Below, one piece after another: positions 29,640 to 48,262 of a stretch of 64,000 nucleotides of DNA. Position numbers and translations under genes: made by a program. The DNA is from Fimbriimonadales bacterium (GTDB taxonomy: Bacteria; Armatimonadota; Fimbriimonadia; Fimbriimonadales; ATM1). How positions within the stretch are numbered: the first letter of the stretch is position 1; every line of letters starts with the position of its first letter. The notes under the pieces are model-generated. The model saw only the letters and a program-made list of their open reading frames with translations. It was not told the origin of the DNA and did not search any database. The stretch lies in assembly GCA_041744215.1 (NCBI GenBank), contig JBGTLG010000033.1, positions 1 to 64,000 on the forward strand, in the 5' to 3' direction.

Positions 29640-30413
29640 TCAGCGGCGGGTTGAATCTGCGTAGCCGTTCCACCAGCCGTTGTCGGGTTCGCCGTCACCA
29701 TCAAAGTCGTCGAGCGAGGAAAGCTTCATCGCTTTGCTGTGGCCGTCGGCGAAGACGACAGCGACGAAGCCGATGTGCCGTCCGTCGGGTGTTGACCTAC
29801 ACCCGTGGACTCCTGCACCACACTCGGCGCCTTGACCGTAGAAGCCACTTGGCCTTCCGCTACCACGATCACTAGGCAGAGGCGGGTCCACTACATACTC
29901 GCCACCACCGACTGTGCCGTCGTCGCGCCAAACTCCTCGCGTGTCGGCGATGGCGACCGTCTCGGACGGAGCGGTCACGTCCGACTCACTCGCTACGAAT
30001 GGAAAGCGCGAATTGCCCAGATATTGGTAGTTGTAGCCGTATCCCCCGTACGTGCGCTCCTGGTTGTGAGCCCACTTCTTGCCTAACACGTCGAGGGTCG
30101 ATACTGGGCAAATGAAGACTTGCTCATTCAAGATGTAAGGGTAAATGGCGTCCGCCCAGCGCGTTCTTGGCACTTGTACTGACGGAGAGGAATGCTGAGG
30201 GTACCGCTCGTAGTCAATCACATACATGGCGAGCGCCATACCCAGCTGCCGCGAGTGGCTCACGCACGTTGTCTTCTTCGCGGCTTCCTTGGCCCTTGCG
30301 AAGACTGGGAAGAGGATTGCCGCGAGGATCGCGATGATCGCGACGACGACGAGCAGTTCGATGAGGGTGAACCCGGGGGTTTGAGCGCGGCGGTGGGTTT
30401 GTGCAGTTTCCAT
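29640..30413 (-). CDS. Prepilin-type N-terminal cleavage/methylation protein (DUF1559 / H-X9-DG type)
   Basis: [25 protein letters not shown]...C; C-terminal RH-IGFVAVVFA-DGH. Confidence 0.92.
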   Translation of the reverse strand: METAQTHRRAQTPGFTLIELLVVVAIIAILAAILFPVFARAKEAAKKTTCVSHSRQLGMALAMYVIDYERYPQHSSPSVQVPRTRWADAIYPYILNEQVFICPVSTLDVLGKKWAHNQERTYGGYGYNYQYLGNSRFPFVASESDVTAPSETVAIADTRGVWRDDGTVGGGEYVVDPPLPSDRGSGRPSGFYGQGAECGAGVHGCRSTPDGRHIGFVAVVFADGHSKAMKLSSLDDFDGDGEPDNGWWNGYADSTRR

Positions 30414-30522: not shown

Positions 30523-31419
30523 TTGGATAGCTTCATTGTCGACCGAGAAGACAGGTTGGATCGGTTCTTGGCGTCTAGCCTCCCGAACCACAGCCGGGCT
30601 CGGCTCGCCGAGCACATCTCGGGCGGGGGAGTGCTCGTCGACGGGAGGCCCAGAAAGGCGTCGTTTCGGCTCCAACCGGGGATGCGGGTGATTGTCGAGC
30701 CCATAAGCGAGCGTCCCGCACACTCGCTGACCCCGGTCGACATGCCTCTGGTCGTTCCCTACGAGGACGAGCACCTGCTTGTTGTCGACAAACCCGCCGG
30801 CCTCTCAGTACATCCTTCCCCCACCGCGAATGAGCCAACTTTGGTCCACGCTCTGCTTGCTCGGTCTCATTCGCTCAGCTCTGCCGCAGGCGCGTACCGG
30901 CCAGGAATTGTTCACCGACTCGATAAGGACACGAGTGGCCTGTTGCTTGTCGCCAAGTCGGACGCCGTGCATCACGCTCTCCAGAAAGCCATTCAGGAGA
31001 AAACCGTTCGGCGCGTGTATCGCGCTGTCGTACGCGGCGTCGCGGCTTCCAAAGCGTTCATCATCCGCTCGTCGCTGGGCAGGAATCCATCGAATCGGCA
31101 GAAGCAGGCGGTTGTCGATTCGTCGGCCCCAGACGCGAGGATCGCGATCACTCACTGCCGCTCGATTCGAACATTTGCTCCGAGCGTGTATGACGTGGCC
31201 TCATCTGAGATTGAGTGCGAGTTGGAAACCGGCCGCACCCATCAGATTCGGGTTCACCTTGCATCCGCTGGGCTACCCATACTTGGAGACAGCCTCTACG
31301 GCGTCGCCTCAAAGCACTTCAAGACACAGGCGTTGCACGCCTACATCTTAGAGCTGGTGCATCCTGTCACGCGCGAGTCGATGCTGCTCAAATCCGATCC
31401 ACCGTGGGGCTCGGCTTGA
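30523..31419 (+). CDS. rluD: RluA family pseudouridine synthase
   Basis: S4 domain RLDRFLA; VDKPAG; GIVHRLDKDTSG; LETGRTHQIRVH. Confidence 0.93.
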   Translation: MDSFIVDREDRLDRFLASSLPNHSRARLAEHISGGGVLVDGRPRKASFRLQPGMRVIVEPISERPAHSLTPVDMPLVVPYEDEHLLVVDKPAGLSVHPSPTANEPTLVHALLARSHSLSSAAGAYRPGIVHRLDKDTSGLLLVAKSDAVHHALQKAIQEKTVRRVYRAVVRGVAASKAFIIRSSLGRNPSNRQKQAVVDSSAPDARIAITHCRSIRTFAPSVYDVASSEIECELETGRTHQIRVHLASAGLPILGDSLYGVASKHFKTQALHAYILELVHPVTRESMLLKSDPPWGSA

Positions 31420-31903
31420 TCTCATCGCAGAACTCACCAATGGACCTTGCGACGCGATCGTATCTTCCGTCTAGCTGCAACCCGCCTTCAACTGGTACTG
31501 CATACGTGCGCCCGTCGCGCGTCAGGATCATCACCTTGCCGAAGCGACGGTCATCGTCATTGGCCCTCCAGCCAAGCACTTCAACCCACCGCGCCCTCCA
31601 CCGCTCTCTCCCAGCTCGCTCAAGCCGCACGCCCTTCTGATCAAGTATGAGTTCAGAGAGTCTCCGCTGCCTGTGATCGATCCCCATGGCCCAAGACACA
31701 AGCCCTGCAAGCACCACGAAAAACGCGAGCATCGCAAGAGCGAAGGGTGACTTTGTCGCGACAAGGCCCATCAATGGCAGAGGGACGAGAACGCCCCAAA
31801 CCACGAGCGTAAACACCGCGAGGGCCCGAGCTTCCCTCCTATCAGACAGAGGAATTCTAATCTCAGGCGCACATGCTTCTCGGGTAACGCGCTTTGAGGC
31901 CAT
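31388..31903 (-). CDS. Hypothetical membrane protein (2 TM + PH-like domain)
   Basis: Two hydrophobic helices followed by a beta-rich tail. Confidence 0.65.
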   Translation of the reverse strand: MASKRVTREACAPEIRIPLSDRREARALAVFTLVVWGVLVPLPLMGLVATKSPFALAMLAFFVVLAGLVSWAMGIDHRQRRLSELILDQKGVRLERAGRERWRARWVEVLGWRANDDDRRFGKVMILTRDGRTYAVPVEGGLQLDGRYDRVARSIGEFCDEIKPSPTVDRI

Positions 31904-31953: not shown

Positions 31954-32748
31954 TTAGTCGCAGGCCCAATACCAGGTGCCATCGGTCGGATGCGGATCGC
32001 CGGTGCGATTGCCTTCCGGATTGATCAGAGCGTCGTCGAATCTTGCGGATCCAGCAATGTGCTTTGCATGGCCGTCCGCGAAGATCATCGTGCCCCCAGT
32101 TGTGTGCCACCTGCGATAGAAGTTCCAGGGAGGATCGCAATCATAACCGTATCGGTCACAAGCGTCCTGCGTGTTTCTTCGATCGAATGCCGCGAACATT
32201 TCGTCACGAATGATACGAGTGTCAGAAGGCGCCACAAACTCAGATTCCTTGACGATCTTAGTGTAGCCATAGGGAACGTTGTTCGCGCTCGATTCATCTT
32301 CGACGACAGAAAACGCGCACTTGGTAAAGCGATAGCTGCTCCCATACGCTTCCCAATAGCTGCGCGCCCCCGGCACGTCTACTTCCGTGTATGGACCACC
32401 TTGATCCAACGGGCACTTGAAGATCGGCATGAGCCGCGTGAGTGGCTGCCCGCCAACGGAAGTAACTGAACCGCCCACGTAGGGCGCGAGTTGCGTTTCG
32501 ACCCCCTTATGTCCCGGCTGCCTAGCATGTGGATTCGACATGTATGCATAGAAGATCGGGAACGTCCCGTCGTAGTCACCCAGGTAGAGCATCAGCGCTG
32601 TACCGACTTGCCTAGCGTTCGACAGGCACGCGGTTCGCTTGGCGGCCTCCTTCGCCTGCGAGAAAACAGGAAAGAGAATGGCCGCGAGGATCGCGATTAT
32701 CGCGATCACGACGAGAAGTTCGATCAGCGTAAACCCTCGTTTTTTCAT
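31954..32748 (-). CDS. Prepilin-type N-terminal cleavage/methylation protein (H-X9-DG type), downstream of TPP riboswitch
   Basis: [50 protein letters not shown] 8 nt before ATG. Confidence 0.93.
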
Positions 32749-32768
32749 TTCATTTGCCTCCAAAAGCC

Positions 32769-32800
32769 AAGGGTCGCTCCGCGGTTGCGGAACGACCCTT
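32769..32800 (-). terminator. Hairpin of the riboswitch expression platform (terminator-like)
   Basis: AAGGGTCGTTCCGC-AACC-GCGGAGCGACCCTT followed by GGCTTTT and the SD on the minus strand. Confidence 0.7.
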
Positions 32801-32811
32801 GAGTCTCGGTG

Positions 32812-32906
32812 CTCCGCTTTCCTACGCCGGTTTGAACCGGATCAGGTTCCGAGGGTCTTCCGGTCAAGCCGGAACTCTCAGCCCACACAGGGCTCCCCTA
32901 GCGGGA
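32812..32906 (-). ncRNA. TPP (THI-box) riboswitch
   Basis: Minus strand CCCGCTAGGGGAGCCC-TGTGT-GGGCTGAGA-GTTCCGGCTTGACCGGAA-GACCCTCGGAACCTGATCCGGTTCAAACCGGCGTAGGAAAGCGG: CUGAGA, GAACCUGA, P5 and GCGUAGG core, P1 CCGCT/AGCGG. Confidence 0.95.
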
Positions 32907-33040
32907 ACGGCGCCTTGGCGCTTAGGTCTATTCTACTCCTATTCAGAAGGCGGGGTTCGGGAAGGTCGCTCACACAAGCCGGTCGAGCAGGCATTAATAC
33001 GGGTTTTCGTCAGCCACCTGCCGAAAGACGGGCTCGGCTG

Positions 33041-48185: not shown

Positions 48186-48262
48186 TGGTAGCGGAGGTCG
48201 GACTCGAACCGACGACCCTGCGGGTATGAACCGCATGCTCTAACCAGCTGAGCTACTCCGCC
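48186..48262 (-). tRNA. tRNA-Met (CAT), elongator type
   Basis: GGCGGAGTAGCTCAGCTGGTTAGAGCATGCGGTTCATACCCGCAGGGTCGTCGGTTCGAGTCCGACCTCCGCTACCA cloverleaf, 77 nt, CCA end. Confidence 0.96.

Follow-up and report, generated by a model that had tools for sequence, protein, structure and literature searches.

A TPP riboswitch paired with a type IV pilin-like gene points to thiamine acquisition in Armatimonadota

Why should a TPP riboswitch stand in front of a gene encoding a type IV pilin-like protein? This question is raised by a locus in a 64,000-nucleotide stretch of DNA (hereafter, the window; positions 1 to 64,000 of contig JBGTLG010000033.1) from a Fimbriimonadales bacterium of the phylum Armatimonadota (assembly GCA_041744215.1). 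DNA of the window was present in three DNA runs from one study, which are hot-spring metagenome runs, and in none of the RNA runs. The features discussed here are the following.

31388-31903: 171-aa open reading frame downstream of P0001, without a Pfam or NCBIfam family
31954-32748, minus strand (read from 32748 to 31954): coding sequence of P0001, a pilin-like protein of 264 aa (translation, Pfam, NCBIfam, alignment, AlphaFold2)
32757-32761, minus strand: Shine-Dalgarno sequence GGAGG, with the start codon 8 nt further (ATG at 32748; from the sequence)
32762-32800, minus strand: expression platform, a 14-bp GC-rich hairpin followed by UUUU (sequence and fold)
32802-32909, minus strand: complete TPP riboswitch aptamer, RF00059 (cmscan, Rfam)

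The aptamer was identified with cmscan at 73.6 bits (E 1.3e-12), for an Rfam gathering score of 54.3 bits, and the match is untruncated, covering model positions 1-105 of 105. An earlier sequence-only reading had placed a TPP aptamer on the minus strand at 32812-32906; its presence and completeness are borne out by this covariance-model search, while its exact ends are corrected. A genome-wide Rfam search of the host genome, which is 93% complete, returned no second TPP riboswitch match. The end of the aptamer lies 53 nt from the start codon, with a hairpin, a U run and a Shine-Dalgarno sequence in between, all on the same strand as the gene, and this aptamer-platform-gene layout is repeated in 39 orthologous leaders.

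The hairpin of the expression platform comprises a 5' arm (32800-32787), a loop (32786-32783) and a 3' arm (32782-32769), and the UUUU run lies 3' of it at 32765-32762. For the leader, a folding energy of -84.7 kcal/mol (z = -4.77) was computed, and none of 200 shuffles was equally stable. These results agree with the terminator-like hairpin previously noticed at 32769-32800, and the wording is apt: as the run contains only 4 U and 5 are required, a scan for consensus terminators made no call at this hairpin, and the site is therefore terminator-like and no textbook terminator. Using our own script, the hairpin with its U run was detected in 20 of the 39 orthologous leaders. In the minimum-free-energy fold of the leaders, the U run is paired. 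The Shine-Dalgarno sequence (32761-32757), also picked out in the sequence-only reading, is indeed present, and in the minimum-free-energy leader fold three of its five bases are paired by an extended hairpin stem. P1 carries the motif GCGGAGC in its 3' strand and the hairpin carries it in its 3' arm, which allows the hairpin 5' arm to pair with either copy. From this arrangement we infer that the platform works as an OFF switch. When TPP is plentiful, P1 would close and the downstream hairpin would form, leading to a transcription stop and/or a hidden ribosome-binding site. Under TPP scarcity, the hairpin 5' arm would be taken up by the P1 3' strand instead, and the gene would be expressed.

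The controlled gene product, P0001, is a specialised type IV pilin-like protein of the DUF1559/H-X9-DG kind. It begins with a class III (prepilin) signal, composed of a short basic leader, Gly at -1, Phe at +1 and Glu at +5, followed by a hydrophobic helix; a long N-terminal helix (residues 8-58) is joined to a head that spans about 200 aa and contains conserved cysteines, and the C-terminus reads GTWYWACD. The protein matches Pfam N_methyl (PF07963; 37.8 bits, cut-off 21.2) and NCBIfam TIGR02532 (36.9 bits, cut-off 16.3), and an H-X9-DG string is found in its C-terminal part, as expected from its earlier description as a type IV prepilin-type protein with this motif. In this region, W214 and D225 are invariant among 38 orthologs, and His 215 is neither invariant nor kept at 90%. 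TIGR04294 presumably represents the H-X9-DG prepilin-associated proteins; no H-X9-DG model was found among the NCBIfam matches of P0001 at E <= 0.01. The match to DUF1559/SBP_bac_10 (PF07596) reached 23.4 bits for a cut-off of 23.3 and covers profile positions 2-46 of 268 alone. In the ESM Atlas, the clusters closest to P0001 comprise unnamed or DUF1559 proteins from Planctomycetota, Verrucomicrobiota, Lentisphaerota and Armatimonadota, among them a DUF1559 cluster at 0.93. N_methyl and DUF1559 are the only Pfam families of P0001, with no membership of ThiT (PF09515), PnuT (PF04973), YkoE-type PF09819 or ThiB-type solute-binding protein families. Identification with the major pseudopilin GspG (TIGR01710) was rejected, the score of 33.8 bits being under the equivalog cut-off of 88.85 with the N-terminal 55 residues alone aligned. 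Having a single membrane helix, P0001 cannot be a transporter on its own.

The AlphaFold2 model of the whole protein is confident (pLDDT 92.9) and shows the helix spanning residues 8-58. In a VIA search, its 12 best matches proved without exception to be pilins or pseudopilins, with weak Z values of 4.8 to 3.0, among them the Neisseria minor pilin ComP (PDB 5hz7, Z 3.8). These pilin matches (Z 4.8 or less) owe much to the N-terminal helix. A Foldseek alignment of the whole model likewise covers the helix alone, with no match at E <= 0.001, and in a sequence-profile search of the PDB the N-terminal helix alone matches, to pilins. When the head was modelled separately (pLDDT 90.4), none of 48,161 chains of solved structures reached Z 2, and Foldseek returned nothing at E <= 0.001. 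A periplasmic solute-binding fold, expected from the Pfam name SBP_bac_10, was absent among the structural matches. Structure prediction had been suggested as a way to find a pocket; the model is confident, yet the head has no match among solved structures, and its fold therefore offers no support for a ligand pocket.

The association of riboswitch and gene was then followed across the phylum. An upstream TPP aptamer was found at all 100 ortholog loci examined, which belong to 13 families; 99 of these aptamers score above the Rfam cut-off and one at 52.6 bits. In the order-level sample, TPP matches were detected in 56 of 61 genomes (60 matches altogether), 39 of them directly before a full-length P0001 ortholog, 16 before thiC and 5 before other genes. 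The phylum sample yielded 60 additional ortholog loci, 59 with a TPP match over the Rfam cut-off and the 60th being the one at 52.6 bits. The pairing was also seen in a MAG labelled Chthonomonadales. Whether orthologs keep the riboswitch had been named as a check of the sequence-only reading, and within Armatimonadota they do. Orthologs were well separated from paralogs, scoring at least 224 bits when the best paralog scored 101.5 bits, and in a tree of 130 pilin-like proteins (quick IQ-TREE search) the 98 TPP-linked ones lie on one side of a branch with an SH-aLRT of 100. Of 19 other loci of the DUF1559 type, which came mostly from Verrucomicrobiota, Planctomycetota and Lentisphaerota with a few from Armatimonadota, none carried a TPP riboswitch. 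A locus scan with the generic pilin N-terminus as pattern recovered mostly unrelated DUF1559 genes, with a single ortholog (locus L069). A literature search, with subscription journals outside its coverage, found no publication on a TPP riboswitch-pilin pairing.

Analysis of the gene environment gave further clues. In the window, Pfam assigns the neighbours of P0001 to a PEP-CTERM protein, a rhodanese/YgaP protein, an MBL-rhodanese protein, an RluD-type pseudouridine synthase, a second prepilin-like gene and an M50B peptidase, beside the 171-aa open reading frame. No thi gene was found among these Pfam-scanned neighbours, in line with the initial impression that no thi biosynthesis gene is adjacent. 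The 171-aa open reading frame was considered as part of the unit and rejected, its conservation being limited to G001, a genome of the same genus (57% identity). The genes downstream of the ortholog vary across the 29 loci listed, with no conserved secreted partner, and in most cases a single stand-alone gene makes up the conserved unit. Some lineages carry longer arrangements: at loci L069 and L165 the riboswitch and the ortholog are followed by thiamine pyrophosphokinase (TPK) and then an SSS permease, and in genomes G020 and G024 a YkoE-type S-component (PF09819) is flanked by two ortholog copies downstream of the riboswitch.

Could the host make the vitamin itself? ThiC, ThiD, ThiE, ThiG, ThiL, ThiT and PnuT were not found in its genome (93% complete), which does encode TPK (132.8 bits on TIGR01378, cut-off 76.4). 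Judged from gene content, with absences meaning "not found" at 93% completeness, the host organism is predicted to be unable to make thiamine and to keep only the TPK salvage step. In the host and in genomes G010 and G058, no convincing ThiD, ThiE, ThiG, ThiL, ThiT or PnuT was detected and TPK was present in all three; ThiT and PnuT were not found in any of the five genomes searched. As HMP kinase (ThiD), ThiE and ThiG were not found, only intact thiamine should be usable. Of the proposed thiamine or precursor role, a link to thiamine acquisition is supported by the conserved pairing, the relation to ThiC described below and the operons, and the precursor option is unlikely here.

The TPK gene of the host overlaps that of a 462-aa SSS permease, on a contig other than that of P0001. 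Both genes are unlinked to P0001 and carry no riboswitch. Orthologs of this permease were found in 29 of 61 relatives, adjoining TPK in 25 of the 29, and in none of the 18 genomes of the ThiC family f5. It was correct that no known thiamine transporter is adjacent to P0001, but the likely inner-membrane route, this TPK-SSS permease pair, had been missed. In genome G008 (91% complete, 180 contigs), TPK and the SSS permease are present, and riboswitch and ortholog were not found. Of 19 genomes of family f3, 11 have the P0001 ortholog and no SSS ortholog at E <= 1e-30.

Genomes that carry the ortholog mostly lack ThiC, and vice versa. In 401 sampled genomes, 142 carry the ortholog only, 201 ThiC only, 16 both and 42 neither (odds ratio 0.024), a 2x2 test that overstates independence because the genomes are related. 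Since ThiC is also present in 16 of the 158 ortholog-bearing genomes, the gene is no simple substitute for synthesis.

A link of P0001 to thiamine acquisition is strongly supported, because no other TPP riboswitch was found in this genome, which is reduced to TPK salvage, the pairing is kept at every ortholog locus examined, gene and ThiC largely exclude each other, and some lineages place the gene in an operon with TPK, the SSS permease or a YkoE-like S-component. With moderate confidence, we propose that P0001 is a TPP-repressed envelope component of thiamine acquisition, whose head captures thiamine and passes it to the SSS permease. Following this proposal, prepilin peptidase (PF01478; one match in the host genome, 50.4 bits) should process P0001, and the N-terminal helix would be expected to anchor the protein either in the inner membrane or within a short pseudopilus. 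The 200-aa head, probably disulfide-bonded, would lie outside the cytoplasm, where it would capture thiamine either within the periplasm or on the cell surface; the vitamin would then be handed to the inner-membrane SSS-family permease and trapped as TPP by TPK. Thiamine binding by the head, like the location of P0001 (inner membrane or pseudopilus) and the hand-over to the permease, is put forward here as a putative part of the scheme.

A second vitamin offers a parallel. Among the best 30 cobalamin-riboswitch loci in the phylum, 18 precede a prepilin-type gene of a clade other than the TPP-linked one, and this count includes a sub-threshold case in the host genome. One cobalamin-linked paralog lies at L218:1720-2499. 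A distinct head clade for each vitamin riboswitch fits specificity in the head. This bears on the leading alternative, which we regard as unlikely though the most serious: P0001 may be a structural pseudopilin without its own ligand, and thiamine starvation would cause a type II secretion-like or pilus apparatus to be built or re-specified, which exports or positions another scavenging factor (e.g., a binding protein, a phosphatase or a lytic factor). The N-terminus of P0001 is similar to GspG, PilA and ComGC in NCBIfam, the host genome has three secretin matches (PF00263) besides its prepilin peptidase, and in family f18 (loci L167, L169 and L172) a second prepilin-like gene lies 3' of the ortholog. 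Such an apparatus is, however, difficult to reconcile with a unit that is usually a stand-alone gene with varying downstream genes and no conserved secreted partner. Moreover, the large head is strongly conserved, with 28 invariant columns in the alignment of 38 sequences, which exceeds the needs of a filament subunit, and the separate clades for thiamine and cobalamin fit head-based specificity.

The conserved head could instead be an extracytoplasmic enzyme, anchored by a helix with no other role, that frees thiamine from TPP, TMP or degraded or modified thiamine for the SSS permease. TPK accepts free thiamine only, as established biochemically, and the polar residues H80, E84, D115, R178, R181 and D225, invariant in the 38 orthologs, might form an active site with the nearly invariant H227. 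We consider this reading less probable again, as the head matches no enzyme family in Pfam or NCBIfam, no hydrolase is among the structural matches of the whole or the head-only model, and it is not evident why the parallel cobalamin-linked clade would require an enzyme of this sort.

Adhesion is a common role of type IV pilins, and P0001 could be a starvation-induced adhesin that attaches cells to vitamin-producing neighbours or prey without binding the vitamin. The carriers are mostly auxotrophs living in communities, and the hot-spring metagenome origin of the window DNA would suit this. We nevertheless find the idea improbable: the operons with TPK, SSS permease and YkoE-type S-component point to transport, and strong conservation of the head over 13 families is unexpected for an adhesin facing varied partners. 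Finally, that the riboswitch is real but mere regulatory baggage, the gene having no thiamine function and standing, for instance, in place of a lost thi gene, is very improbable given an aptamer kept at 100 of 100 loci in 13 families, orthologs that form one clade and a phyletic pattern complementary to that of ThiC.

As a thiamine-capture component, P0001 invites comparison with known systems. The thiamine locus of Bacteroides thetaiotaomicron reportedly combines a TPP riboswitch with an outer-membrane TonB-dependent transporter, PnuT and TPK. Common to both are a TPP riboswitch on envelope-level acquisition genes and the use of TPK with an inner-membrane permease to trap the vitamin, and at L069 and L165 all parts lie within one riboswitch operon. 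In contrast, the envelope part here is type IV pilin-like with no TonB-dependent barrel, the permease is of the SSS type and not PnuT, ThiT or ThiBPQ, and in the host genome the parts are unlinked, with the riboswitch on the pilin-like gene only. No TonB-dependent receptor was found in the host genome or in G010. BtuG and BtuH of Bacteroides are said to be riboswitch-controlled B12-binding surface lipoproteins. By analogy, P0001 may be an accessory non-transporter under a vitamin riboswitch, acting in capture outside the inner membrane, and the pilin-like genes of a sister clade that follow cobalamin riboswitches at 18 of the 30 best loci recall the B12 case; unlike BtuG and BtuH, it has a prepilin helix as anchor instead of a lipid and another fold, and no sequence or structural similarity was found. 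Like the DNA-binding ComP and competence pseudopili, a pilin-fold protein could bind imported cargo, but the putative cargo would be a 265-Da vitamin instead of DNA, and for P0001 any filament entry or retraction is conjectural. With DUF1559 (PF07596)/H-X9-DG proteins it shares the prepilin N-terminus, the post-helix stretch CLSNxRQ...MY..DYD and the C-terminal ...GG....FADGH...; it differs from DUF1559 at large by a Pfam match barely at the cut-off (46 of 268 positions), a head in a distinct clade and a regulatory tie to a defined metabolite.

This tie matters, as few families of unknown function in Planctomycetota, Verrucomicrobiota, Lentisphaerota and Armatimonadota are as large as the DUF1559/H-X9-DG pilin-like proteins. 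Because a riboswitch indicates which metabolite a gene responds to, it provides a concrete ligand hypothesis for one DUF1559 clade. The case is unusually clean, with one riboswitch, one controlled gene, no thiamine synthesis and the pairing at every ortholog locus examined. Vitamin auxotrophy and cross-feeding shape microbial communities, and a missing uptake component therefore affects the reading of metagenomes. If the head binds thiamine, it would represent a new class of vitamin-capture protein and suggest a cofactor scavenging route for bacteria with few or no TonB-dependent receptors. More speculatively, and with doubt outweighing confidence, pilin-like proteins in Armatimonadota and perhaps the PVC phyla might serve as exchangeable, ligand-specific nutrient-capture heads on a secretin-linked pseudopilus, one clade for thiamine and another for B12, each switched by its vitamin riboswitch, as an alternative to TonB-dependent import. 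If true, such exchangeable heads would constitute a previously unknown mode of small-molecule uptake and give DUF1559 a general function.

The pilin-like gene, whose product is named P0001 hereafter, lies behind a TPP riboswitch. A search with the Rfam TPP covariance model, proposed as a check by the sequence-only reading, recovered the full-length model (positions 1-105 of 105) at 73.6 bits, against a gathering score of 54.3 bits. The aptamer, the hairpin, the Shine-Dalgarno sequence and the prepilin-type gene that it had described were all confirmed, as was the lack of an adjacent thi gene, a Pfam scan finding no thiamine genes among the neighbors of P0001. The region is organized as follows:

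32802-32909, minus strand: complete TPP riboswitch aptamer
32800-32769, minus strand: 14-bp GC-rich hairpin 3' of the aptamer, read from the sequence
32765-32762, minus strand: UUUU run after the hairpin
32761-32757, minus strand: Shine-Dalgarno GGAGG, 8 nt before the ATG at 32748
32748-31954, minus strand: pilin-like gene encoding P0001 (264 aa)

The leader fold reached -84.7 kcal/mol (z -4.77), a value equaled in none of 200 shuffles. Two copies of the heptamer GCGGAGC are present, one within the 3' strand of P1 and one within the hairpin 3' arm, so that the hairpin 5' arm can pair with either copy. Such alternative pairing of one arm is typical of OFF switches, and we infer that the leader works in this way. 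A consensus terminator scan made no call at the hairpin because the U run has only four U, and an extended hairpin stem covers three of the five Shine-Dalgarno bases; control could be exerted at transcription, translation or both. Apart from the TPP aptamer, Rfam matched just one feature of the window, a tRNA gene (48189-48262, minus strand, 67.5 bits).

P0001 scored above the cut-offs of PF07963 (N_methyl, 37.8 bits) and TIGR02532 (36.9 bits). It matched PF07596 (DUF1559) at 23.4 bits for a cut-off of 23.3, over profile positions 2-46 of 268 only, and the GspG, PilA and ComGC models matched its N-terminus alone, below their cut-offs. An AlphaFold2 model built from an alignment of 38 orthologs (pLDDT 92.9, pTM 0.87) shows a helix spanning residues 8-58, followed by a mixed head of about 200 residues. 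The 12 best matches of the whole model in a wide structural search, with Z of just 4.8 to 3.0, were all type IV pilins or pseudopilins (including PilA4, CofA, EpsG, ComP, PilV, PilE and PulG), and Foldseek aligned the helix only. The modeled structure thus suggests that P0001 is pilin-like. The periplasmic solute-binding fold implied by the Pfam name did not appear among the structural matches, and that reading was rejected. Modeled alone (pLDDT 90.4), the head had no match in structural searches. Across the aligned orthologs, 28 columns of the head do not vary, with Tyr, Trp, Phe, Asp, Glu, Arg and His well represented among them; the cysteines C144 and C263 are fully conserved, C197 and C204 nearly so. 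This pattern fits an extracytoplasmic protein with disulfide bonds and may be compatible with a binding site for a cationic aromatic ligand. The His of the H-X9-DG motif is not conserved across the orthologs.

A second prepilin-like DUF1559 gene (29640-30362, minus strand) lies 1.6 kb downstream of P0001, with a convergent RluD-type pseudouridine synthase gene in between. No riboswitch precedes this second gene, and in the tree described below its product (row own_C33_-149715) groups outside the TPP-linked clade. The 171-aa ORF behind P0001 is kept in one other genome only (G001).

Across the order, 56 of 61 genomes had a TPP match, nearly always one per genome. All 60 matches were fetched and the downstream gene was classified. 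Thirty-nine stand upstream of a full-length P0001 ortholog (17 in family f1, including the source genome, 3 in f2 and 19 in f3); one of these loci is split (G012), one is truncated where its contig stops (G019) and one comes from an unpublished genome (G011), leaving 38 without it. Sixteen precede thiC, with adjacent coordinates in every case; f5 contributes 15 of them and f1 a single one, G003. The remaining five matches precede other genes:

G022 (L030, family f4): 227-aa membrane protein, weakly BPSS1780-like (35.6 bits, cut-off 90)
G014, second contig (L037, C20): 499-aa S10 serine-carboxypeptidase-like protein
G028 (L040) and G038 (L042): proteins of 216-222 aa, with several membrane helices in the place of the prepilin signal, then a DUF1559-like start CLSN.KQ...
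G052: uncharacterized 231-aa protein

The match in G022 is the sole TPP riboswitch of that genome, and the BPSS1780-like protein behind it is a candidate unrecognized thiamine transporter. The peptidase, an odd riboswitch target, stands behind the second TPP riboswitch of a 78%-complete MAG, and its contig may be mis-binned. The multi-helix proteins also follow the second TPP riboswitch of their genomes and may be counterparts of P0001 that are integral to the membrane.

Orthologs scored at least 224 bits over their full length, and the best paralog anywhere, 101.5 bits. ThiC-bearing genomes of the order hold only such paralogs; ThiC and an ortholog never occurred together among the 61 genomes. 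Six genomes had neither (G008, G016, G022, G037, G051 and G057), all fragmentary with 150 to 480 contigs, G016 being only 65% complete.

The closest named homologs of P0001 carry Fimbriimonadales, Fimbriimonas, Candidatus Nitrosymbiomonas and Chthonomonas labels, all Armatimonadota. Among 401 genomes of this phylum, 158 (79 of 208 genera) encode an ortholog at E <= 1e-40 and 217 encode ThiC: 142 have the ortholog only, 201 ThiC only, 16 both and 42 neither (odds ratio 0.024, with a Fisher p-value that overstates the association because related genomes are not independent). Families f8, f11, f18, f30, f32 and f1 are mixed, indicating that the exclusion pattern arose more than once. We scanned 60 further ortholog loci for RNA families, 40 hand-chosen from 109 ortholog-bearing genomes outside the order (families f8, f11, f15, f16, f18, f29, f30, f32 and f36) and 20 from 30 listed loci, of which L176 and nine from previously covered genomes were set aside. 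In 59 of the 60, a TPP match exceeding the cut-off lies upstream on the same strand, and the last (L180) has one of 52.6 bits. The aptamer was also present at L069, from a MAG labeled Chthonomonadales. Relatives therefore keep the riboswitch, as the sequence-only reading had asked: it was seen at 100 of 100 ortholog loci examined, L180 being below the cut-off. None was found at 19 unrelated DUF1559-type loci, mostly from Verrucomicrobiota, Planctomycetota and Lentisphaerota with a few from Armatimonadota. A quick IQ-TREE analysis of 130 pilin-like proteins (98 TPP-linked, 20 cobalamin-linked and 12 other paralogs of the source genome; the orthologs of L197 and L206 and the cobalamin-linked gene of L229 were missed by the ORF caller) united all 98 TPP-linked proteins in one clade, set off by a branch with an SH-aLRT support of 100. 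A literature search outside subscription journals found no paper on this riboswitch-pilin pairing.

The source assembly (2.68 Mb, 42 contigs, 93.2% complete) has a single TPP riboswitch match, the one at P0001. Thiamine genes were sought in this genome, in two near-complete ortholog-bearing relatives (G010 and G058) and, for comparison, in G035 and G003. ThiC was not found in the source genome. ThiD reached 325 bits in G035 and 302 bits in G003, with weak partial matches of 22-37 bits in the other three; ThiG reached 367 bits in G035 and was partial, at 29 bits or less, elsewhere. ThiE was found in G035 only, which alone passed the ThiL cut-off. Thiamine pyrophosphokinase (TPK) was found in all but G035, at 132.8 bits on TIGR01378 (cut-off 76.4) in the source genome. 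From its gene content, the organism appears to be auxotrophic for thiamine and to require the vitamin in intact form. Since ThiD and ThiE were not found, precursors would be useless to it, which makes them unlikely as the alternative cargo once considered. As for known transporters, ThiT and PnuT were found in none of the five genomes; a permease gene stands beside TPK on another contig:

Source genome, contig C40, 38478-40717 (L146, L064): TPK gene, overlapping the start of a gene for a 462-aa SSS-family permease (PF00474)

This permease is weakly PanF-like. At L069 and L165 (G185, family f42), the operon order is riboswitch, ortholog, TPK and a homologous SSS permease. Within the order, permease orthologs occur in 29 of 61 genomes (17 of 19 in f1 plus the source genome, 3 of 3 in f2, 8 of 19 in f3), adjoining TPK in 25 of the 29, both counts including G011; none was found in the 18 thiamine-synthesizing f5 genomes or in G003. 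The SSS protein is likely an undescribed thiamine permease. In two genomes of one genus (G020, L048; G024, L045), the riboswitch is followed by one ortholog copy, a gene for a YkoE-type ECF S-component (PF09819) and a second ortholog copy, the copies measuring 233 and about 251 aa; PF09819 was not detected elsewhere in the 61-genome sample. At other loci the ortholog is mostly stand-alone, with varying downstream neighbors.

A parallel was observed for cobalamin. At 18 of the 30 best-scoring cobalamin-riboswitch loci from 150 phylum genomes, a prepilin-type gene begins no more than 500 nt downstream; G081 has such a pair at 49.8 bits, and one cobalamin-linked paralog lies at L218:1720-2499. 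In the source genome, a sub-threshold match was detected:

Contig C15, 75341-75465, plus strand: cobalamin-riboswitch match, 28.5 bits (cut-off 31.5)

A stand-alone gene for a 259-aa prepilin-type protein follows 94 nt downstream; it shares only about the first 70 residues with P0001, its head being unrelated. Cobalamin-linked proteins lie apart from the TPP-linked clade, 19 of 20 in one group (support 93). That two vitamin sensors each have their own head clade argues that specificity sits in the head.

Several observations count against a role of P0001 in thiamine acquisition: the head gives no structural hint of a ligand pocket, the proposed partner genes (TPK and SSS permease) are unlinked to P0001 in the source genome, ThiC and an ortholog coexist in the 16 genomes mentioned, the permease ortholog is missing in 11 of 19 f3 genomes, and G008 has TPK and the permease with neither riboswitch nor ortholog found. 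Rival explanations comprise a pseudopilin with a structural role only, an enzyme of the envelope and an adhesin; a fourth, a linkage without meaning, is very unlikely given the 100 loci at which the aptamer was seen. As for pilin machinery, the source genome encodes one prepilin peptidase and three secretins, one on the window's own contig (C33:178371-178862), and G010 also has three secretin genes. A search for TonB-dependent receptors (PF00593) came up empty in these two genomes and gave one apiece in G058 and G044 and four in G081. The reading we consider most likely, with moderate confidence, is that P0001 is an envelope component repressed by TPP that takes part in acquiring thiamine, at a step ahead of TPK and the SSS permease. 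The chances that the head itself binds thiamine are perhaps even, and display on a pseudopilus passing through a secretin is a less probable part of this proposal.
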